From Halalkalibacterium halodurans (GTDB lineage Bacteria; Bacillota; Bacilli; Bacillales; Bacillaceae_D): DNA of 32,000 nt. The translations under genes were made by a program, and so were the position numbers. The notes beneath the pieces were generated by a model, which was not told the origin of the DNA, made no database searches, and saw only the letters and a program-made list of their open reading frames with translations. Of this stretch, positions 16,429 to 32,000 are shown one piece after another. The stretch covers positions 42,298-74,297 of the forward strand of contig NZ_SNUY01000010.1 in NCBI RefSeq assembly GCF_004376175.1. Reading direction: 5' to 3'. Each line of letters begins with the position of its first letter. Within the stretch, counting starts at the first letter, position 1.

Positions 16429-16668
16429 ATGCCAGCACACGTGAATAACCAAGCAGAACATTTGCGGTATGAAGCTAAAGGCAGAAACGTGGAAGAGTTG
16501 CCTGTTGCTAGCGAAAAGCTGCCTTCTCGGCTTGACGTGCATCGCCGTAAGCGAAGGAAGAAGAAAAAGGCGCTTAGCTTTCCACTCATTCGGATCTTGC
16601 TCGTGTTTTTTTTCCTTATTGTCATTGGCGCCCTATTATCTCCGTTTTGGCTTGAATACATGTTATAA
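16429..16668 (+). CDS. Small single-pass membrane protein with a polybasic juxtamembrane stretch
   Basis: A hydrophilic N-terminus, RRKRRKKKK, then a TM segment (LIRILLVFFFLIVIGALL). The RBS is GGGGGGA. No family recognised with certainty. Confidence 0.45.
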   Translation: MPAHVNNQAEHLRYEAKGRNVEELPVASEKLPSRLDVHRRKRRKKKKALSFPLIRILLVFFFLIVIGALLSPFWLEYML

Positions 16669-16727: not shown

Positions 16728-17177
16728 ATGGGCGGTAAAGGAGCAACTCTGTTCATAAAAAATCGAGTGACCGATGTGACATATGTTATGATTGAAGAGC
16801 TAATTGTCCGTAAAGAAAAATGGGATAAGCTCGAAAAACAGCTTCGATTTTGGTCTGTGCTCGGACTAGCGTTCTTGTTACTAGGCATCATCCATGTCAT
16901 CGTCCTTACTACAAGCACGCACACCACATATTTATTGCAGTTCATTAGTGGCAATCAGACGTTTTTATTCGTGTTGTTAGGTGTGGCCCTTTCGTTCTTT
17001 CAAATGCAATTCGTTCATAAAAAAGCTGAAAAGGCGGAAACGGAATATGAAGAGCTTCGCAAGGAACTTGTGGAACGCTCGGTCGAACTATGGGATACGG
17101 AACCTTTGTGGCAAAAGCGAAATGAGACGTTCCAACACTTAAAGGATACATTTGATATTAATTTATATTATAAATAA
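16728..17177 (+). CDS. Membrane protein, two predicted TM segments plus a C-terminal charged helix (possibly YpbF/DUF2663-like)
   Basis: It has the RBS GAAGGGGGA, two hydrophobic segments (VLGLAFLLLGIIHVIVL and FLFVLLGVALSFF), and is followed by a terminator. The family call rests only on synteny recall. Confidence 0.55.
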   Translation: MGGKGATLFIKNRVTDVTYVMIEELIVRKEKWDKLEKQLRFWSVLGLAFLLLGIIHVIVLTTSTHTTYLLQFISGNQTFLFVLLGVALSFFQMQFVHKKAEKAETEYEELRKELVERSVELWDTEPLWQKRNETFQHLKDTFDINLYYK

Positions 17178-17181
17178 CAGC

Positions 17182-17215
17182 AAAAAAGCCTGATCGACAA
17201 CATCAGGCTTTCTTT
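17182..17215. terminator. Bidirectional intrinsic terminator
   Basis: The sequence aaaaaa-gcctgat-cgacaac-atcaggc-tttcttt is shared by convergent ORFs. Confidence 0.65.
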
Positions 17216-17448
17216 AGTGAAGGGGTGGTTACAGGCTGACCAAAGAACAAGCATTGATCGCGGGAAAAGGTTTGGTCATTTACTTGAACGTACTCTTCGC
17301 TATATGCTTGTATCCGACCAAAGGCGAGTGTGTGCAAACGTTGAAGGCAGACAACTTCAATCGGCAATCCGATCGTTCGGTTAAAGTGGAGGTCCGCATT
17401 TGTCACGAGTGATTTTTCCAATCGTTTCGTTGTGAACAAATAAGTCAC
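17203..17448 (-). CDS. Hypothetical small protein (about 78-81 aa)
   Basis: It is the only ORF here on the minus strand. AAGGAAGG lies upstream, with a likely TTG start at 17439. Its stop lies within the terminator stem. No recognisable family. Confidence 0.35.
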   Translation of the reverse strand: MTYLFTTKRLEKSLVTNADLHFNRTIGLPIEVVCLQRLHTLAFGRIQAYSEEYVQVNDQTFSRDQCLFFGQPVTTPSLKKA

Positions 17449-17749
17449 CTTCCTTTTTCTGTTTTTTTAAATGATAACCAACACGAGCATTTAAACATAA
17501 GTTGTTTCATTTATTTGGACATATCATGTTTTATGAGAGATGGATCGAAAGAAATGTTAACGGTTTCATAATTAAAATTATACAATGAATGGAAATGAAT
17601 TTCAATAAGTTTCTGAAAATTCTTGGTTAGAATTAGAAGTAAATGAATGTCTTATAATTGTCACAAAATGATCACATGAAAAGCCTTTGTTCATGTTAAG
17701 CTACAAGATAAGGAAACGTTTTAAAAAGATATGGGAGTGGATCAAGAGA

Positions 17750-17860
17750 ATGATGACAGCAGGGCAATTAGGTGCAATTATTGGCATTGGTTTTTTAGCA
17801 ATGGGAATTGCAGTGTTAATGGCATATTCTCTCTACAAATTCTCAAATATGTCAGATTAA
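17750..17860 (+). CDS. 36-aa hydrophobic peptide (MMTAGQLGAIIGIGFLAMGIAVLMAYSLYKFSNMSD), not in the ORF track
   Basis: The RBS GGGAGTGG (17733-17740) lies 9 nt upstream of the ATG. The peptide has a single TM-like core with a polar tail, and a strong terminator begins 8 nt after the TAA. Confidence 0.45.
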   Translation: MMTAGQLGAIIGIGFLAMGIAVLMAYSLYKFSNMSD

Positions 17861-17867
17861 TTTACTA

Positions 17868-17900
17868 GGCTGGTACTCATAAAGAGGTACCAGCCTTTTT
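17868..17900 (+). terminator. Intrinsic terminator after the small peptide ORF
   Basis: ggctggtac-tcataaagag-gtaccagcc forms a perfect 9-bp stem followed by ttttt. Confidence 0.75.
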
Positions 17901-17951
17901 CGTATATAATCATAACTAGAGTACTTACAGCACATCTTGGGGGGATGGACG

Positions 17952-18341
17952 TTGCTCGTTTTTGTTTATGGGACGCTTCGCAAAGGAGGAGCCAACGATC
18001 ATTATTTGCGCGGAGCCCGGTGTCACAATCGGCGTTGCTATGTATATGGTCACTTGTATGATTCAGGGCTCGGCTATCCAGCACTTATAGCCGATGAAAA
18101 AGGGGGAAAGGTGGTTGGTGAACTTTATGAGATTAATGAACAGCATTTAGTTTCCCTTGATGAATTGGAGGATTATGCTCCAGATCGGAATCATAACTTG
18201 TACGAGCGGGTCTTACATACACTAGAAGACGGTAGCCATTGTTATTTATATGTAGTTACTCCTGACTCGCCCCTTGTGCGCACATTGATTCCTTCGGGGG
18301 ATTGGCTTGACTGGACGGAAAACAAAAAATCAACCGAATAA
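17952..18341 (+). CDS. Gamma-glutamylcyclotransferase (AIG2/GGACT-like) family protein
   Basis: The N-terminal VFVYGTLRKGGxN motif and the later LDELEDY...Y pattern are typical of the family. I prefer TTG 17952, after GGGGGGA. Confidence 0.8.
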   Translation: MLVFVYGTLRKGGANDHYLRGARCHNRRCYVYGHLYDSGLGYPALIADEKGGKVVGELYEINEQHLVSLDELEDYAPDRNHNLYERVLHTLEDGSHCYLYVVTPDSPLVRTLIPSGDWLDWTENKKSTE

Positions 18342-26414: not shown

Positions 26415-27680
26415 ATGGAAGATAAAGACAAGCGGTCGGGGAAAACAACAGACGTGCTTGCTTCTACGCAAACAGTGATTAAAAAGGCGCTTGATAAATT
26501 AGGTTATCCAGATGAAATGTATGAGTTGATGAAAGAACCGATTCGCATGTTAACGGTTAGAATTCCTGTGCGAATGGATGACGGTTCAACAAAGATATTT
26601 ACTGGCTATCGGGCCCAGCATAACGATGCGGTAGGCCCAACAAAAGGCGGTGTTCGCTTCCATCCAAATGTAACGGAAAAAGAAGTGAAAGCGCTTTCTA
26701 TCTGGATGAGCTTAAAAGCAGGAATTGTCGACCTTCCGTACGGAGGAGGAAAAGGCGGAATTGTCTGCGACCCGCGGGACATGTCGTTCCGTGAACTAGA
26801 AAGACTCAGTCGCGGCTATGTGCGGGCGATTAGTCAAATTGTCGGTCCGACGAAGGACATTCCGGCACCAGATGTTTTTACAAACTCACAGATCATGGCA
26901 TGGATGCTTGATGAATATAGCCGAATACGTGAATTTGATTCACCGGGCTTTATTACAGGGAAACCAATTGTCCTTGGAGGCTCACACGGACGGGAGTCTG
27001 CTACGGCTAAAGGGGTTACCATTTGCATTCGTGAGGCAGCGAAGAAAAAAGGTATCGATCTTCAAGATGCAAGGGTGGTGATCCAAGGCTTCGGAAACGC
27101 AGGGAGCTTCTTAGCAAAATTCATGCACGATGCAGGAGCAAAGGTGATTGGAATTTCGGATGCTTATGGAGCTCTTCACGATCCAGACGGCCTTGACATT
27201 GACTATTTGCTCGATCGCAGGGACAGCTTTGGTACAGTTACAAAGCTCTTTAAAAATACGATCTCAAATGAAGAGCTATTAGAGTTAGATTGCGATATTC
27301 TTGTACCGGCTGCGATAGAAAATCAAATTACGGAAAAAAATGCGCATAACATTAAGGCACAAATCGTGGTCGAAGCTGCGAATGGTCCGACGACGATTGA
27401 AGCGACGGAAATTTTAACAAAGCGCGATATTCTTCTCGTACCAGACGTACTCGCAAGCGCAGGTGGCGTTACCGTCTCCTACTTTGAATGGGTGCAAAAC
27501 AACCAAGGGTATTATTGGACGGAAGAAGAGGTGGAAGGAAAGTTAGAAGCTGTTATGGTTCACGCTTTTGATAACATTTATAAGCTGGCGAAAGGACGGA
27601 AGGTGGATATGCGTCTAGCAGCGTATATGGTCGGCGTAAGGAAAATGGCCGAAGCATCTCGCTTCCGTGGCTGGGTATAA
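26415..27680 (+). CDS. gudB: NAD-specific glutamate dehydrogenase
   Basis: GPTKGGVRFHP, LPYGGGKGG and GFGNAG are Glu/Leu/Phe/Val dehydrogenase motifs. The gene is 421 aa and adjacent to ypdA, as I recall for B. subtilis gudB. Confidence 0.9.
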   Translation: MEDKDKRSGKTTDVLASTQTVIKKALDKLGYPDEMYELMKEPIRMLTVRIPVRMDDGSTKIFTGYRAQHNDAVGPTKGGVRFHPNVTEKEVKALSIWMSLKAGIVDLPYGGGKGGIVCDPRDMSFRELERLSRGYVRAISQIVGPTKDIPAPDVFTNSQIMAWMLDEYSRIREFDSPGFITGKPIVLGGSHGRESATAKGVTICIREAAKKKGIDLQDARVVIQGFGNAGSFLAKFMHDAGAKVIGISDAYGALHDPDGLDIDYLLDRRDSFGTVTKLFKNTISNEELLELDCDILVPAAIENQITEKNAHNIKAQIVVEAANGPTTIEATEILTKRDILLVPDVLASAGGVTVSYFEWVQNNQGYYWTEEEVEGKLEAVMVHAFDNIYKLAKGRKVDMRLAAYMVGVRKMAEASRFRGWV

Positions 27681-27789: not shown

Positions 27790-28758
27790 ATGGAACAAGA
27801 ACAGGTGATTATTGTCGGTGGTGGTCCGTGCGGGTTGGCAGCAGCGATTGCGTTACAAAATGAAGGTCTCAAGCCTCTTGTTATTGAAAAGGACAACATT
27901 GTGAGCGCAATCCATCGTTATCCGACCCATCAAACGTTTTTTAGTACGAGTGAAAAGCTCGAAATTGGGCAAGTACCGTTTTTAACAGAAGAGCGAAAGC
28001 CAAAGCGAAGCCAAGCTCTCGTCTATTATCGAGAAGTGGTCAAACGAAAGCAGATTCGTGTCAATCCATTTGAGCGAGTCACGAAGGTGACGAAGCAAGA
28101 GGACGGGACATTCTATGTAGTAACATCAAAGCGAACATATCACTGCAAGCAAGTGGTCATTGCCACAGGTTATTATGATCATCCCAATTCACTAGGTGTC
28201 CCAGGGGAAGATCTTCCCCATGTTTTTCACTATTTTAAAGAGGCGCACCCTTACTTTGACCAGGACGTTGTCGTGATCGGCGGGAAAAACTCCGCGGTTG
28301 ACGCAGCCCTTGAATTGGAGAAGGCAGGAGCAAGAGTAACGGTCCTATATCGTGGAGACACGTACTCAGATAGTGTCAAGCCATGGATTTTACCGGAATT
28401 TGTTTCTCTTGTAAACCACGACAAAGTAAAGATGGTGTTTCGTGCACAAGTGAAGCGAATCACAGCTTCGGAAGTGGAGTATGAGACCCAGGGTGAGAGG
28501 AAAGCGGCAAGAGCCGATTTCGTGTTTGCCATGATTGGCTACCATCCGGACCACAACTTTCTGAAAACGATGGGTGTTGCTATCGATCACGATACAGGTC
28601 GTCCCATTCACGACCCAGAAACGATGGAAACTAACGTGGAAGGGATTTTTATCGCAGGTGTTATTGCTGCAGGAAATAACGCTAACGAGATATTTATTGA
28701 AAATGGCAGATTTCACGGAGAAATGTTCGCAAAACTGATTCGGGAACGAGTGGAGTAA
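27790..28758 (+). CDS. ypdA: YpdA-family FAD/NAD(P)-binding oxidoreductase (putative bacillithiol disulfide reductase)
   Basis: VIIVGGGPCGLAAAIAL...YPTHQTFFSTSEKLEIG closely matches the YpdA N-terminus as I recall it. A second dinucleotide motif, VVVIGGKNSAVDAA, is present. The start could be GTG 27775 or ATG 27790. Confidence 0.85.
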   Translation: MEQEQVIIVGGGPCGLAAAIALQNEGLKPLVIEKDNIVSAIHRYPTHQTFFSTSEKLEIGQVPFLTEERKPKRSQALVYYREVVKRKQIRVNPFERVTKVTKQEDGTFYVVTSKRTYHCKQVVIATGYYDHPNSLGVPGEDLPHVFHYFKEAHPYFDQDVVVIGGKNSAVDAALELEKAGARVTVLYRGDTYSDSVKPWILPEFVSLVNHDKVKMVFRAQVKRITASEVEYETQGERKAARADFVFAMIGYHPDHNFLKTMGVAIDHDTGRPIHDPETMETNVEGIFIAGVIAAGNNANEIFIENGRFHGEMFAKLIRERVE

Positions 28759-28771
28759 AGAGCTGGGTACT

Positions 28772-28830
28772 CTGTAAGATTAAGTACAAGTAATTGTACA
28801 TTAAGTCTTATTTAACAGTGTTTTATTTAT
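28772..28830 (+). terminator. AT-rich imperfect palindrome plus U-rich tail (possible native ypdA terminator or recombination site)
   Basis: ctgt-aaga-ttaagtaca / tgtaca(a)ttaa-tctt...acag pair with bulges, followed by tgttttatttat. Confidence 0.35.
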
Positions 28831-28853
28831 AATGTTACACATTAAATAAAAAT

Positions 28854-28900
28854 GCACATTACTAAAAACAAATTTTAGTGATGTGCTTTTTATTTTTATT
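28854..28900 (+). terminator. Strong hairpin plus T-rich tail upstream of the recombinase genes
   Basis: gcacattactaaaa-acaa-attttagtgatgtgc forms a 14-bp stem with one G-U pair, followed by tttttatttttatt. Confidence 0.55.
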
Positions 28901-28936
28901 AACTCTTAAATATAAATTTATTAAAAGGTTAAACAT

Positions 28937-28965
28937 TTTACAATTACTAAGAAAAATATTAATAT
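28937..28965 (+). promoter_or_regulatory. Candidate sigma-A promoter of the recombinase operon
   Basis: TTTACA-N17-TAATAT lies ~35 nt upstream of the TTG start. The -35 overlaps a 10-nt inverted-repeat partner (tacaattact). Confidence 0.4.
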
Positions 28966-28998
28966 AAGAACATACATTCCTATCGAGGGGGAGAATAA

Positions 28999-30339
28999 TT
29001 GTATTGGTTTAAGTATTGTCCGAAGCATGTTGAAAGTAAATATCAGTTACTTGTATTTAAAGATAACCTGCCCTTTATTCCTTTGACAGACTATTATCAT
29101 GATTGTTTAGGGAGAATTGATAAAAGCTCTGCAATATCATATATGAATTGTTTGTTACCATTTTTTAAATGGTTAGATAAAGAAAGTAATTATCAAGGAA
29201 ACCAAGTACAATGGAATGATTCAGAAGAGAAAATACGTGTTGTAGTTGAAGATTATTTGATGAATGAAATGAAGTGTAAGATTCGTGATAAAGATACCTT
29301 TCTTTTTGTAAATTTAACTAATAAAAGTCCTAACACAGTTAGTCGATTTTTATCAGCATTAAAATCATTTTACAAATCAATGATCAGGTTAAAACAGTAT
29401 CACTATAGTAATCCATTAATAGATGGTCAGGCTATCCTACATAGCTACAAAGAGGAGATAAAGGGTGTGCGAGAAGGTAAATCAAGAATGCCTTCAATCG
29501 CTGGTACAGAAGAAGCTATTCCTCATCGAAGATTAACAGATTCCTATTTTAAAATTATCAATGAAGAATGGCAACCACAGATTATTGATGATATAGATTT
29601 ACCATATCAAATATATCAAGCTGGTAAAAAAGCAAATTGGTCACTCCGTGAAATGGTAATAGCCCGTATGCTATTTGAAACAGGCGCAAGGGCAACAGAA
29701 ATTATTGAGTTAACACTAGGGGATTACCGTAAACGTAAAAGTCATCAAGAATTTATTACCTTCAATAAAGGAAGTCATGGTAGAAAAATCAAGTTTATAC
29801 GTGTTAGCAAAGATACGGTAAAAAGGTTGTTTCATTACATAGATACTGAAAGAAAATCCTTTGACGAAAATCATTTAAATTTTGATCAATTACCTGATGA
29901 TGCTTCTATCTTTTTATCAGTAAACGGAACGCCTCTTACTTATCACGCTTGGTACTACCACTGGAATCGAGCAATGAAGATAAATGATTTAAGTTTAAAT
30001 CCACATAAAGCAAGGCATTGGTTCGTTACTTCTCGATTAAGAGAAATTTATAACGTTTCAAAAAATGAAACAGAAATACATCAACGAAAAAATGAGTTGA
30101 TCAAATATATGAAGTGGAAAAATCCCGATACGATAAATGTGTATGAACATCATTTTGATGAAACGAGACATCGAGAAGCACATGAGAAAATGTTAGATCA
30201 AATGCAACAAAACGAAAAGGGCTATGTTAAACGACAGGAAACTTCGAGGAAATCAAAGCAAAAGTTGAGTGTTGTTAAATCATTAGGTATCGAAGACTTT
30301 GATGAAGATTTAAAAGAATTATTAGAAGGGTTGGAGTAA
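28999..30339 (+). CDS. Tyrosine recombinase / site-specific integrase (446 aa, TnpA-like)
   Basis: Catalytic-domain motifs are present: ETGARATEIIELTLGDY (Arg I), HKARHWFVTS (HxxR) and PDTINVYEHH (Tyr). An N-terminal SAM-like core-binding segment is also present (SSAISYMNCLLPFFKWL). The TTG start follows GAGGGGGAG. Confidence 0.85.
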   Translation: MYWFKYCPKHVESKYQLLVFKDNLPFIPLTDYYHDCLGRIDKSSAISYMNCLLPFFKWLDKESNYQGNQVQWNDSEEKIRVVVEDYLMNEMKCKIRDKDTFLFVNLTNKSPNTVSRFLSALKSFYKSMIRLKQYHYSNPLIDGQAILHSYKEEIKGVREGKSRMPSIAGTEEAIPHRRLTDSYFKIINEEWQPQIIDDIDLPYQIYQAGKKANWSLREMVIARMLFETGARATEIIELTLGDYRKRKSHQEFITFNKGSHGRKIKFIRVSKDTVKRLFHYIDTERKSFDENHLNFDQLPDDASIFLSVNGTPLTYHAWYYHWNRAMKINDLSLNPHKARHWFVTSRLREIYNVSKNETEIHQRKNELIKYMKWKNPDTINVYEHHFDETRHREAHEKMLDQMQQNEKGYVKRQETSRKSKQKLSVVKSLGIEDFDEDLKELLEGLE

Positions 30340-30341
30340 AA

Positions 30342-32000
30342 TTGACTGAAACATCTGATGTCAGACCTGTTACAGCTTGGTATGATGAATGGTCTAGAAA
30401 AGTAGATTCTAACCTATTATGCATGCAAAACAGCCGAGGAGAATATTTAATTGATAAAGTAAATGAACGAAACTTAACACATTTAAATTCAACTTGTATA
30501 GATAAAATTTGGTTCCCACAATTATTATTAATTACACTTATTGAAGCTGATAGAAATAAAGATGTGGGATCAATAAGTGTTCAGAATACTGCTTTAAATA
30601 ATAGATTTAGCGATATTTTTAATGAACTTAAGATTGCTTCATGGTCAGATTTTAATCCAAATCAACATATGTATATGTATTTAAAAGCCGAGATTTATCC
30701 AGAACATACTAATAATCAACGGAGGAGATTGTTTGAGTACTATAAGACATGTTTGTACAATACCCAAAAATGGATTAATACTACATTATCAATTGATAAA
30801 CAAACAAATTATAAGCAATTTTTATTACCATCAATCCATTTTGATTCAAGAGATTTCTCCTTAAGTAAATTAGCCAGGGAAGAAGCCCAAAATACTCGAA
30901 AAGATGAAACAGACGCTATTGTACCACATCTTTCAACAATACGTGTAGAAGCAAATCTACGATGGAATCAAATAAAAAGACTAAAAGATGCATTTCAGCA
31001 ACAAATAAGAATTGTAGAAACCGATTCATTATCATTACCAATTGAATTTTCTTATGAGGAACCAAAACGTATTGGAGAAGTATTTCATTTTCGCTTATGG
31101 GATAAACCTTCCTTTGTACTGAAGCACCAAAAGGAGTTTTCAGATGCCGTTGTAAAACTGGCAAAACAAAAAAAAGCAAATTATTCTGATGAAAATAATG
31201 CCTACTTCCTTGAATTTATTCGTGCTGAGTCTGTAGATAGTGATTCAGAACCAGAAGGACTTTGGTTTAATGATTTAATTGAGCAGAATGTTTTAGGAAG
31301 TTGGCCAAAAACCAAACCAGTTGAAGAACATAAGAAGATTCTTAATTTCTTGTCCACTTGGGGCTACGAGGCTGAAAATGGGAAAAAGCCCGTTCCATTT
31401 TTTTCAGGTCATAAAGGTATAATAACACCTTCAACATTTGTTTCTTTACACAAGGATAAAGCAGAGGGCTTATTAATAGATGTAGAACCATTCTATGTAG
31501 CTTGTACATTTGGATTATTAGCCATCGACATTTTAACAACAACAGGTGCAAGAAAGAACGAATTACTTCAAATTAGTAATACGAAAGAATGTATTCAAGT
31601 AAAGAAAATTAATAACAAGCTACATTATTCCTTTAGAGCTATTCCTAAAGGAAGAGATTCATTAGAAGAATTTTATATAAGTAAACAAACGATGGAATAT
31701 ATTCAAATTGTATCAAGGATGTTAAAAGCACATTGTGACAGTGATAAAATTCCAAGCGTCATATACAGAGATAAAAGAAAACATTTATTTCCTACACCTA
31801 TGCCCTATTATTTTCAATATGCAGATAGAGCATTAAGGGATGTTACTTTATATAGTTCCATTCGATTTTTACTTCATGGATTAGTATTTGAGATGCAAGA
31901 TGGAAAAGCTGTAACTATAAAAACACACCTATTACGTCATGCATTTGCGACAGAAGCTGTTCAACGTCAAAAAATGCCGATTGATATTGTCGCAAAAATG
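30342..32000 (+). CDS. Second, large tyrosine recombinase (TnpB-like), partial: open through the window end
   Basis: My own translation gives 553 sense codons from TTG 30342 with no stop. The ORF is absent from the track, presumably because it has no stop in the window. It contains TTGARKNELLQI (Arg at codon 404) and HLLRHAFATEAV (H529-x-x-R532). The catalytic Tyr is expected beyond 32000. The ORF starts 2 nt after the upstream TAA, with GGAG 5 nt upstream. Confidence 0.8.
   Translation, partial: MTETSDVRPVTAWYDEWSRKVDSNLLCMQNSRGEYLIDKVNERNLTHLNSTCIDKIWFPQLLLITLIEADRNKDVGSISVQNTALNNRFSDIFNELKIASWSDFNPNQHMYMYLKAEIYPEHTNNQRRRLFEYYKTCLYNTQKWINTTLSIDKQTNYKQFLLPSIHFDSRDFSLSKLAREEAQNTRKDETDAIVPHLSTIRVEANLRWNQIKRLKDAFQQQIRIVETDSLSLPIEFSYEEPKRIGEVFHFRLWDKPSFVLKHQKEFSDAVVKLAKQKKANYSDENNAYFLEFIRAESVDSDSEPEGLWFNDLIEQNVLGSWPKTKPVEEHKKILNFLSTWGYEAENGKKPVPFFSGHKGIITPSTFVSLHKDKAEGLLIDVEPFYVACTFGLLAIDILTTTGARKNELLQISNTKECIQVKKINNKLHYSFRAIPKGRDSLEEFYISKQTMEYIQIVSRMLKAHCDSDKIPSVIYRDKRKHLFPTPMPYYFQYADRALRDVTLYSSIRFLLHGLVFEMQDGKAVTIKTHLLRHAFATEAVQRQKMPIDIVAKM

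Follow-up and report, generated by a model that had tools for sequence, protein, structure and literature searches.

In the genome of Halalkalibacterium halodurans (NCBI RefSeq assembly GCF_004376175.1, contig NZ_SNUY01000010.1, positions 42,298 to 74,297), base composition changes abruptly directly after ypdA, and two recombinase-like open reading frames (ORFs) follow. We asked what this AT-rich segment is, how it came to lie at this locus and what determined its position. Here, the window denotes the whole 32,000-nt stretch that was analyzed, and positions are those of the window. A preliminary description, made from the sequence alone, had interpreted positions 28759-32000 as the left end of an uncharacterized mobile element with two coupled tyrosine recombinases, resembling Tn554, and had placed its cargo to the right of the window.

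An AT-rich segment downstream of ypdA encodes two tyrosine recombinases

The G+C content is 0.445 for positions 1-28758 and 0.309 for positions 28768-32000, with 0.225 in the 240-nt leader, and no other 1-kb block of the window falls below 0.37. In 300-nt windows, the drop lies between 28500-28799 (0.44) and 28650-28949 (0.28). The three 60-nt counts in the preliminary description (28/60, 11/60 and 22/60) were exact. The stop codon of ypdA is at 28756-28758. ORF2 starts 2 nt after the ORF1 stop, and both start at TTG; ORF2 is absent from the list of ORFs only because it runs off the window. ORF1 scored 38.2 bits against Pfam Phage_integrase (PF00589), above the 27.1-bit cut-off, and R231, K257, H336, R339, W373 and Y382 were invariant in 24 homologues. 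ORF2 was below the Pfam cut-off (E 0.16; 1.8e-4 for its full-length homologue), and its assignment therefore rests on the conserved catalytic residues and the predicted fold. The Arg at codon 404 and HLLR at 529-532 are located where the preliminary description placed them; in 713-aa numbering, R404, K436, H529, R532, H555 and Y564/565 were invariant in 45 homologues, as were four C-terminal cysteines beyond the window. The AlphaFold model (pLDDT 77) had XerA, IntI (2a3v, E 0.01) and Cre as its best PDB matches. These data confirm the observation on composition, ORFs and motifs, with one refinement: homology with related elements starts at 28768, not at 28759. The features of the locus are as follows.

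28757-28767 (no strand assigned): host DNA, AAAGAGCTGGG, whose first two bases are the last two of the ypdA stop codon; left arm of the two-way terminator hairpin shared by ypdA and a convergent asparaginase gene, cut off from its loop and right arm by the insertion.
28768-28774 (+): first 7 nt of the element, TACTCTG, a heptamer nearly constant at every left junction; putative crossover (overlap) region.
28775-28790 (+): left core-type arm TAAGATTAAGTACAAG, an imperfect inverted repeat of the invariant right terminus CTTGACTTTTAATAAAA seen in relatives; the symmetry was read directly from the aligned sequences.
28828-28843 (+): TATAATGTTACACATT box, with an invariant core in the alignments of related elements (A2 and A3), repeated in direct orientation about 70 nt inside the right end of relatives; putative accessory recombinase-binding site, inferred from sequence.
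28854-28896 (+): predicted intrinsic terminator inside the left end (14-bp stem, then TTTTTATTTT), facing incoming transcription from ypdA.
28937-28965 (+): promoter-like site TTTACA-17-TAATAT upstream of ORF1, a consensus match only and no more frequent than in shuffled sequence, followed by a degenerate palindrome (28967-28980) and the ribosome-binding site GAGGGGGAG (28985-28993); the block is conserved in alignment A2.
28999-30339 (+): ORF1, the ordinary-sized tyrosine recombinase (tnpA-like, 446 aa), identical to H. halodurans WP_134229024.1.
30342-32000 (+): ORF2, the large tyrosine recombinase (tnpB-like), first 552 of 713 codons and still open at 32000; matches H. halodurans WP_166740022.1 over all 552 visible codons.

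A search of the leader for known RNA families found none.

The segment interrupts a terminator hairpin that is intact in other H. halodurans genomes

The preliminary description would have failed if related genomes all carried this segment or if the ORFs lacked integrase features, and neither was the case. Every distinct H. halodurans context returned for identical YpdA or GudB (4 and 10 places, drawn from 23 and 15 contigs read) lacked the segment and had ypdA followed 26 nt later by the convergent asparaginase gene, and then PrsW and the met genes. The 26-nt spacer holds the uninterrupted hairpin. This empty site reads GAGTAAAGAGCTGGG|C(T/A)TGGTGCC(C/T)AGCTC(C/T)TTTA, where the bar marks the junction, and folds at -23.4 kcal/mol. 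The element thus starts at the junction of the left arm and the loop of the hairpin. Only the left 3.2 kb lie within the window, and exact look-ups of ORF1, of the 686-aa form of ORF2 and of the database copy of ORF1 returned no indexed contig; the intactness and size of this copy, with its tnpC, cargo and right junction, are therefore inferred from relatives.

Related elements share a gene trio, conserved ends and variable cargo

Relatives with 49-92% identity to ORF1 were found in Lysinibacillus, Sporosarcina, Kurthia, the Bacillus cereus group and Priestia, and the nearest, at 82-88% DNA identity, are in Lysinibacillus and Kurthia. Ends were mapped in those of 63% identity or more. Motif searches did not reliably locate the ends of the 49%-identity subfamilies (loci designated L065 and L066, and the Paenibacillus loci), which were not counted; the B. 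cereus-group locus L048-L054 is one vertically inherited site and added only a left junction. The relatives share a trio of co-oriented genes (446 + 713 + 157 aa), the third overlapping the end of the second, followed by 0-5 kb of variable cargo, including resistance-like and defence-like genes, and a conserved right end. The 157-aa protein has no integrase domain and no PHROG hit. Homology started sharply at TACTCTG in 16 related loci whose flanks all differ, and the right terminus TTGACTTTTAATAAAA was invariant. The nine complete close relatives first mapped span 2.5-9.2 kb, two of them being decayed, and a tenth spans 9.7 kb; undecayed complete copies span 4.7-9.7 kb, and one has no cargo.

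The left-end terminator was the only terminator-like hit in 28600-29100, against 0.2 expected, and was conserved in 14 elements, with paired changes in the stem in loci L010, L013 and L025. Inward-facing terminators at the right end were detected in 8 of 12 elements.

Relatives lie in hairpins of unrelated sequence

Since the window copy splits a hairpin, we examined the flanks of its relatives. Arm complementarity was at least 8 of 12 at a spacer of 6-7 nt in 7 of 9 close relatives, with an eighth scoring 6, whereas locus L010 did not fit; the empty site of the window scored 10, and a random site reaches 8 with a probability of 0.002. The more distant members L015, L017, L047, L063 and L064 behaved in the same way. 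In total, the flanks rebuilt a hairpin with a 6-7-nt spacer in 13 of the 14 relatives in which both junctions are visible. About 20 different flanks shared no sequence, and the last six bases of the left flanks showed no consensus. A second direct set of an empty site plus both junctions was recovered for L015 in the B. cereus group, where the empty site folds at -22.1 kcal/mol. No target duplication was seen at the window's left junction or in this set. A simple retention of the target loop at the right junction fits the spacing everywhere but is contradicted by L015, in which the 6 nt at the right junction (CAATTG) differ at 2-3 positions from the loop of the closest empty sites (TATTTA or TATTTG), although the flanks are about 99% identical; the exchange rule thus remains unresolved. 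We also considered that the target might be read on one particular DNA strand, as in integron-type recombination on folded single-stranded DNA, but the orientation of the element relative to the GC skew of its flanks was 11 positive, 7 negative and 2 neutral, giving no support for this, although the test is weak because a palindrome can fold on either strand.

Interpretation

As a whole, these data lead us to conclude, with good confidence, that positions 28768-32000 are the left 3.2 kb of a small transposon moved by tyrosine recombinases and acquired recently and horizontally by this H. halodurans strain. The preliminary interpretation is therefore supported, in that the segment is the left end of a mobile element with the Tn554-like layout that it had suggested. 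The expectation of a novel system to the right of 32000 remains possible, but given the size of complete relatives it is not expected to be large, and the suggested site-specific insertion holds only in an unusual sense, because the target is a class of structures (terminator palindromes) and not one sequence. Its exact position between the left arm and the loop of a pre-existing terminator hairpin, the absence of a target duplication, the equivalent position of relatives in hairpins of unrelated sequence and the inward-facing terminators at the left end and most right ends rest directly on the sequence comparisons, whereas mobility and everything that follows on mechanism, including the circle junction and the crossover positions, are deduced from integrated copies only.

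We postulate that the two recombinases excise the element as a circle, whose junction (CTTGACTTTTAAT-AAAA / TACTCTG / TAAG-ATTAAGTACAAG) would form a classical core site with two inverted arms around a 7-bp overlap. This site would recombine with any short palindrome whose arms are 6-7 bp apart, the cut lying 3-3.5 nt to one side of the dyad, which is the normal tyrosine-recombinase geometry. Because the arms share no sequence, in this view the target must be read by shape (an extruded cruciform or a hairpin), and the extra domains of the large subunit, a helical N-terminal extension and a four-cysteine C-terminal module, are the likely reader. The heptamer is always at the left junction and never at the right, suggesting a strand-biased reaction in which one pair of strands is exchanged and replication finishes the job. 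The built-in terminators would replace the one destroyed, so that the insertion would be nearly harmless to both flanking genes. In this view, the right terminus ...TTGACTTTTAATAAAA of the window copy would be followed by ...CCCAGCTC and the asparaginase gene within about 10 kb of 28768.

In its widest form, which we consider as likely as not, this hypothesis describes a widespread family of transposons that choose targets by DNA shape, treat any short palindrome with a 6-7 bp centre, in practice intrinsic terminators, as a pseudo core site, insert at a fixed offset from the dyad through a strand-biased exchange, and bring their own terminators to replace the one they split. It would be a generic safe-harbour insertion system carrying small resistance and defence cargo across Bacillales, with cousins on enterobacterial plasmids. 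Tyrosine-recombinase elements are thought of as sequence-specific (phage integrases, Tn554) or as preferring AT-rich, bent DNA (Tn916). The gene layout found here has precedents, but we could not find this way of choosing targets described for this kind of element; it would add target choice by structure to the behaviour of such transposons and offer a tractable system for asking how a recombinase pair reads a palindrome. It also bears on what the large second recombinase and the small third protein of Tn554-like elements do and how these elements move, an open question in the literature (PMC3414803, PMC10214605). In practice, hundreds of protein clusters annotated only as "site-specific integrase" could be recognized as markers of a transposon with predictable ends, which carries resistance-like and anti-phage-like genes between genera, and an element that inserts at terminators and brings its own insulation is an attractive basis for a low-impact integration tool.

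Alternative explanations

Of the alternatives, all of which we consider unlikely, the one that survives best is that the element is a bona fide Tn554 family member working as Tn554 does, with sequence-specific recognition of an att554-like core and a 6-bp footprint carried from the donor's left flank to the new right junction. The gene layout, the two catalytically complete recombinases, the absence of target duplication and the asymmetric ends agree with this. Tn554-related sets of a short recombinase, a long recombinase and TnpC have been described outside staphylococci (PMC3414803), as has the 6-bp footprint rule (PMC10214605), and the altered spacer at the L015 right junction could be such a footprint. 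However, the targets share no core sequence, and the left junction carries a constant heptamer belonging to the element and not 6 bp from the target. By eye, the right-junction spacers are AT-rich and loop-like, whereas the left-flank hexamers are GC-rich, so that the spacers do not look like copies of donor left flanks, and no spacer matched the left flank of another copy in the same genome.

Another possibility is that the segment is the integration module of a large island (prophage, ICE or integrative mobilisable element) with tens of kilobases of cargo and two integrases that happen to be adjacent. Only 3.2 kb are visible, and on some plasmids the trio lies beside larger accessory regions. 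On the other hand, all fourteen relatives in which both ends were located are 2.5-9.7 kb, with the right terminus a few kb past tnpC, many short-read contigs carrying the recombinases are 4.4-5.5 kb, the size of the cargo-less element, and no phage or conjugation genes lie next to the trio in any relative.

Finally, essentially random insertion followed by loss of harmful insertions is the least likely, because, although sites between convergent genes are neutral places to land and only surviving insertions can be seen, selection could enrich for intergenic DNA but not for the single nucleotide position, at the arm/loop boundary with a spacing that matches tyrosine-recombinase cleavage geometry, seen in 13 of 14 relatives and in both direct empty-site comparisons.

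Comparison with known elements

Tn554 and its staphylococcal, enterococcal and listerial relatives (Tn558, Tn559, Tn6188, Tn6674) likewise have three co-oriented genes encoding an ordinary tyrosine recombinase, a large one with a long N-terminal extension and a small third protein, with the full catalytic set in both recombinases; they are small, their cargo lies distal to the trio, and they show neither target duplication nor long terminal inverted repeats. In the elements described here, the ends share only an imperfect inverted repeat of roughly 15 bp. The trio is known from relatives, only its first two genes being visible in the window. The proteins are larger (446/713/157 aa) than those of Tn554 (roughly 361/630/125 aa), the target is any terminator-like palindrome and not att554 in radC, and the left junction carries the heptamer instead of the target's 6 bp (rule as given in PMC10214605). 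At the sequence level, tblastn of both proteins against 72,556 plasmids gave no staphylococcal or enterococcal hit among the records listed; five Tn554-type accessions were absent from the collections searched, FR675942, AJ715531, KC206006 and KU521355 among them from the plasmid collection. Pfam, NCBIfam and PHROGs contain no model specific to Tn554, and a profile search of 1.84 billion representative proteins gave 750 related clusters, of which ten sampled distant hits carried no Tn554 name. These searches did not demonstrate sequence homology to the Tn554 proteins themselves, and the only link to them is indirect, through the literature (PMC3414803).

Tn554-related elements of Actinobacteria, B. 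cereus pBc10987 and Novosphingobium (Van Houdt et al. 2012, PMC3414803) have a short and an "abnormally long" tyrosine recombinase with a TnpC-like partner and are present in several copies. The catalytic domain of the large protein weakly matched actinobacterial plasmid integrases (22-25% identity, E 1e-4 to 1e-8), and ORF1 matched a Novosphingobium plasmid protein (E 2e-8). Those are different sequence families, pBc10987 was not among the records listed for ORF1, and no target rule was described for them.

SE elements and GInts of Proteobacteria (strand-biased circularizing integrative elements; PMC10214605, PMC5385486) are not self-transmissible and have asymmetric junctions, which suggests a strand-biased reaction. 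They differ in having a fourth core gene between the two recombinases, encoding a recombinase-fold protein without catalytic residues (Tfp/GinC), and they insert at a few sequence-defined sites and leave a 6-bp footprint; here, ORF2 starts 2 nt after ORF1, and relatives have no fourth conserved gene. RIT (recombinase-in-trio) elements, with three adjacent tyrosine recombinase genes, and integron or Xer/dif modules were likewise rejected on gene content.

Integron integrase acting on folded attC and XerCD acting on folded CTX-phage DNA are tyrosine recombinases that read DNA structure and exchange a single strand pair, with replication completing the product. In attC, the crossover lies near the base of the stem of a single-stranded hairpin, whereas here it is at the loop, symmetric about the dyad. 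Other mobile elements also use extragenic palindromes or terminators as harmless landing sites, namely class C group II introns (downstream of intrinsic terminators) and IS1397/ISKpn1 and IS110-family elements (REP palindromes), but their chemistry is entirely different, being retrohoming or DDE/DEDD transposases, some of them RNA-guided.

A trio on enterobacterial IncL/M and other plasmids (445 + 977 + 150 aa), annotated only as "site-specific integrase", has the same gene order, and all three proteins are homologous (29%, 27% and 36% identity; E 2e-42, 1e-42 and 2e-9), although the large subunit is much longer. This trio is located next to a truncated umuC-like gene, toxin-antitoxin genes and a CBASS system.

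Composition and coding content of the island

All of the features recorded in the preliminary description, namely an abrupt fall in G+C directly after ypdA and two closely spaced recombinase ORFs, were confirmed in the sequence. G+C content was 0.445 over positions 1-28758 and 0.309 over 28768-32000, and the three counts made by hand for single 60-nt lines (28/60 at 27001-27060, 11/60 at 28801-28860 and 22/60 at 29401-29460) were exact. In 300-nt windows the drop occurred just after the ypdA stop codon. No other 1-kb block of the window fell below 0.37, the only other dip being that at 17001-18000 (0.373). The features considered below are as follows.

28756-28758, stop codon of ypdA
28768, first base of the inserted element
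28854-28896, terminator in the left end of the element, facing ypdA
28967-28980, degenerate palindrome between a promoter-like site and the ribosome-binding site of ORF1
28999-30339, ORF1, TTG start, 446 aa, tyrosine recombinase
30342-32000, ORF2, TTG start 2 nt after ORF1, open for 552 codons to the end of the window, large tyrosine recombinase

ORF1 passed the Pfam integrase threshold (38.2 bits) and contains invariant R231, K257, H336, R339, W373 and Y382. ORF2 did not pass the threshold (E 0.16; full-length homologue, 1.8e-4). However, the residues to which the preliminary description had pointed (Arg 404 and HLLR at 529-532) are present and are invariant in 45 homologues, as are a Lys, a second His and a Tyr-Tyr pair. 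An AlphaFold model of the full protein (pLDDT 77, pTM 0.70) matched XerA, the integron integrase and Cre best.

Host and empty site

The YpdA protein, read from the ATG at 27790, is identical to that of Halalkalibacterium (Bacillus) halodurans. ORF1 is identical to WP_134229024.1, and ORF2 to the first 552 residues of the 713-aa WP_166740022.1; both proteins come from an 86,913-bp H. halodurans contig. In the GenBank annotation, ORF1 is TES56378.1 and ORF2 is TES56390.1, twelve numbers apart although the genes are adjacent in the window, and ORF2 was called 27 codons short (686 aa). This may be only a quirk of accession ordering, or there may be a second copy on the contig.

The contigs encoding the identical YpdA or GudB all showed ypdA followed 26 nt later by a convergent asparaginase gene, and then by PrsW and methionine genes. 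The spacer in these contigs reads GAGTAAAGAGCTGGG C(T/A)TGGTG CC(C/T)AGCTC(C/T)TTTA, which is a two-way terminator hairpin that folds at -23.4 kcal/mol, whereas the window reads ...AAAGAGCTGGG followed immediately by TACTCTGTAAG.... The island is therefore a strain-specific insertion that begins at 28768, exactly where the left arm of the hairpin meets its loop.

Structure and distribution of the element

A scan of one genome per species found 31 loci encoding relatives of ORF1 (49-90% identity), in Lysinibacillus, Kurthia, Sporosarcina, Jeotgalicoccus, Psychrobacillus, the B. cereus group, Priestia, Paenibacillus and Brevibacillus. In these loci (given L numbers below) ORF1 is followed by a 713-aa gene and then by a 157-aa gene that overlaps its end, which is the arrangement that the preliminary description had likened to Tn554. 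DNA similarity to the window starts abruptly at TACTCTGTAAGATTAAGTACAAG in 16 loci, and the DNA to the left differs in each. About 4.15 kb is conserved, followed by variable DNA and then by a conserved right end of roughly 300 bp, which finishes in the invariant TTGACTTTTAATAAAA. The interpretation of the island as the left end of a mobile element is upheld. The window itself contributes only the left end and one and three-quarter genes; its cargo, if it has any, lies outside the sequence seen and is probably small. By analogy with the relatives, the end of tnpB in this copy would be expected to be followed by an overlapping tnpC of about 157 aa and 0-5 kb of cargo, and the right junction to read ...TTGACTTTTAATAAAA, 6-7 nt and CCCAGCTC(C/T)TTTA, followed by the asparaginase gene.

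Complete, intact copies measured from 4.66 kb, with no cargo (L008), up to 9.7 kb, and two shorter copies, L025 and L027, are decayed. Cargo in relatives includes a cREC-domain protein with an Abi_C protein, an aminoglycoside-type phosphotransferase, an erythromycin esterase with a sensor kinase, an MFS transporter, a short-chain dehydrogenase, a STAND NTPase with an AAA_21 ATPase, and a GNAT acetyltransferase. The family is large: there were 220 hits for ORF1 and 269 for ORF2 in the 90%-identity clusters, all annotated only as integrases, and a profile of the large protein found 750 clusters at 50% identity. Many short-read contigs that carry the genes are 4.4-5.5 kb, the size of the bare element. 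Close relatives (65-71% identity) also appeared in assemblies labelled Vibrio (L018, a 3.9-kb scaffold of Vibrio sp. Y2-5) and Mycobacteroides (P0051, annotated M. abscessus), for which contamination of the assemblies seems more likely than transfer of a Bacillales element.

Insertion in terminator hairpins

The reconstructed flanks formed a hairpin in every close relative but one, such that the left flank ends with the top of one arm and the right arm starts 6-7 nt after the last A of the element. In L005 the flanks read AAAAAGGACTTCAAT / element / CACCGAG ATTGAGGTCCTTTTT, and in L025 they read AAAGCGATTTCTC / element / GTAACA GAGAAATCGCTTT. Arm complementarity was scored out of 12, allowing one mismatch. 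Seven of the nine close relatives with both junctions reached 8-12 and an eighth scored 6, while the empty site of the window scored 10; among 54,000 random positions in the same flanks, 0.2% reached 8. The one relative that breaks the rule is L010 of Sporosarcina limicola (16527-16560), whose right flank, TTTTTAAGTACACTTATTTTATT, resembles an inverted or degenerate copy of the element's own left arm (ATTAAGTACAAGTAATT); the element may have inserted next to the remnant of an older copy.

More distant members, which share 63-74% ORF1 identity with the window, behaved in the same way: L017 of Priestia, L015 of B. paranthracis, and the plasmid loci L047 (B. thuringiensis), L063 (L. irui) and L064 (B. 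toyonensis). In total, 13 of 14 relatives with both junctions sit in a palindrome. For L015, empty sites were recovered from other B. cereus-group strains. The empty site is AAAAAGAAAAAAAGAATC TATTT(A/G) GATTCTTTTTTTCTTTTT, which folds at -22.1 kcal/mol, the left junction is AGAATC/TACTATGTAAT, and the right junction is AATAAAA/CAATTG/GATTCT. The L015 target is the terminator of a HAD-hydrolase gene, and in two B. cereus-group genomes (L056, 241-1296, and L057, 169-1296) an IS605-type OrfB/TnpB gene lies just upstream of that gene, replacing the P450 and 192-aa genes seen in other strains.

In both direct comparisons with empty sites nothing is duplicated, and the cut lies 3-3.5 nt to the left of the dyad. 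The tops of the arms share no sequence (…CTGGG, …GCTCC, …AGGCA, …TCAAT, …CCACC, …AGAGG, …TCTAC, …TTCTC, …CGGCC, …GGATT, …GAATC), and the common feature is therefore symmetry, not sequence. Survivorship alone cannot explain placement to a single nucleotide.

The elements at L007 and L008 are 100% identical over 4432 bp, yet they come from a Bacillaceae MAG, Jeotgalicoccus aerolatus and a 'Coprovivens' MAG. L007 (1940-1991) and L008 (9720-9769) have unrelated left flanks that both end in CCACC immediately before TACTCTG, which could be chance, a target preference or a few carried nucleotides, and L008 and L009 share the same flank even though they are assigned to different taxa. In addition, two different elements, L003 (9745-9766; 88% DNA identity to the window) and L063 (9755-9777; 74% ORF1 protein identity to the window), sit in hairpins with the same arm, AAAAGCTTAGG(A), although their contexts, a Lysinibacillus sphaericus contig and a L. 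irui plasmid, are otherwise non-homologous. This may be a repeated terminator or a hot-spot.

Features of the element ends

The circle that precise excision would produce reads CTTGACTTTTAAT-AAAA / TACTCTG / TAAG-ATTAAGTACAAG, as read from the alignments of the element ends (A2 and A3); the predicted circle junction is ...TTTTAATAAAA, 0-7 nt and TACTCTGTAAG.... This corresponds to two imperfect inverted arms around a 7-bp centre, the layout of a classical tyrosine-recombinase core site. In the same alignments, a TATAATGT..ACATT box occurs in direct orientation about 60-70 nt inside each end. When the right terminus of relatives is joined to window positions 28768-28780, the invariant TTGACT at the right end lies 17 bp from TAAGAT/TAATAT at the left end. 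On sequence reading alone, this would form a promoter only in the excised circle, as in some insertion sequences, although the left-end terminator lies between it and ORF1.

The strong terminator of the left end, which faces ypdA, is the only such hit in the region, and it is conserved with paired stem changes in other copies. Eight of twelve right ends have a hairpin with a T-run that faces inward from the other flank. In this view, the element would replace the terminator it splits, for both neighbouring genes. In relatives, a palindrome (AGAACATTCGTTCT) that looks like an operator lies between the promoter-like site and the ribosome-binding site of ORF1, whereas in the window copy it is degenerate (AGAACATACATTCC).

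Inferred mechanism of insertion

The sequence comparisons demonstrate a recent insertion at a hairpin loop without duplication, the same geometry across the family, two catalytically complete recombinases with a conserved small partner, and built-in terminators. From these we infer, without direct observation, that the element is excised to a circle, and that the core site of the circle recombines with a palindrome acting as a pseudo-site, with cuts 6-7 bp apart around the dyad. Recognition of shape rather than sequence is likewise an inference, as is a role in that recognition for the parts of the large subunit that have no structural match, namely the roughly 200-aa helical N-terminus and the C-terminal four-cysteine module with its coiled coil.

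The heptamer of the element, TACTCTG, was found at the left junction in about 20 copies and at the right junction in none of 14. Since a symmetric two-strand exchange with heteroduplex resolution should give both outcomes, this points to a strand-biased reaction of the kind proposed for SE elements and Tn554 (PMC10214605). Many right-junction spacers look like native loops with a closing pair (C-ACCGA-G, C-TCAAT-G, T-GCAAA-A); in L015, however, the spacer differs at 2-3 of 6 positions from the nearest empty sites. Orientation of the element relative to the GC skew of the flanks was 11:7, which gave no sign that one replication strand is preferred.

Relationship to described elements

The layout, the absence of duplication and the asymmetric ends match Tn554, while the target rule and the left-junction rule do not. 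The resemblance rests on these features rather than on demonstrated sequence homology to Tn554's own proteins, and no staphylococcal or enterococcal hits were among the records listed in our searches. Van Houdt et al. described Tn554-related sets of a short recombinase, a long recombinase and TnpC in Actinobacteria, on B. cereus pBc10987 and in Novosphingobium (PMC3414803), and the proteins studied here hit some of those groups weakly. Full-text searches found no description of a tyrosine-recombinase element that targets terminator hairpins, although these covered open-access papers only, so that prior description elsewhere cannot be excluded. We regard the element as belonging to the broad, already described Tn554-like kind, but as choosing its target in a way that appears to be undescribed.

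Homologous trios also sit on enterobacterial plasmids, next to a CBASS system. In L046 (Klebsiella pneumoniae p299-OXA-48, NZ_CP092591.1, 7944-17137), a trio of 445 + 977 + 150 aa, which occurs on IncL/M and other enterobacterial plasmids, sits between a truncated umuC-like gene and a toxin-antitoxin pair followed by a CBASS system (NucC, Cap6, Cap7, cyclase). CBASS may be cargo of a Gram-negative cousin of this element. The leader of this trio also contains TATGTAACAC/TGTACAC motifs that resemble the TATAATGTTACACATT box.
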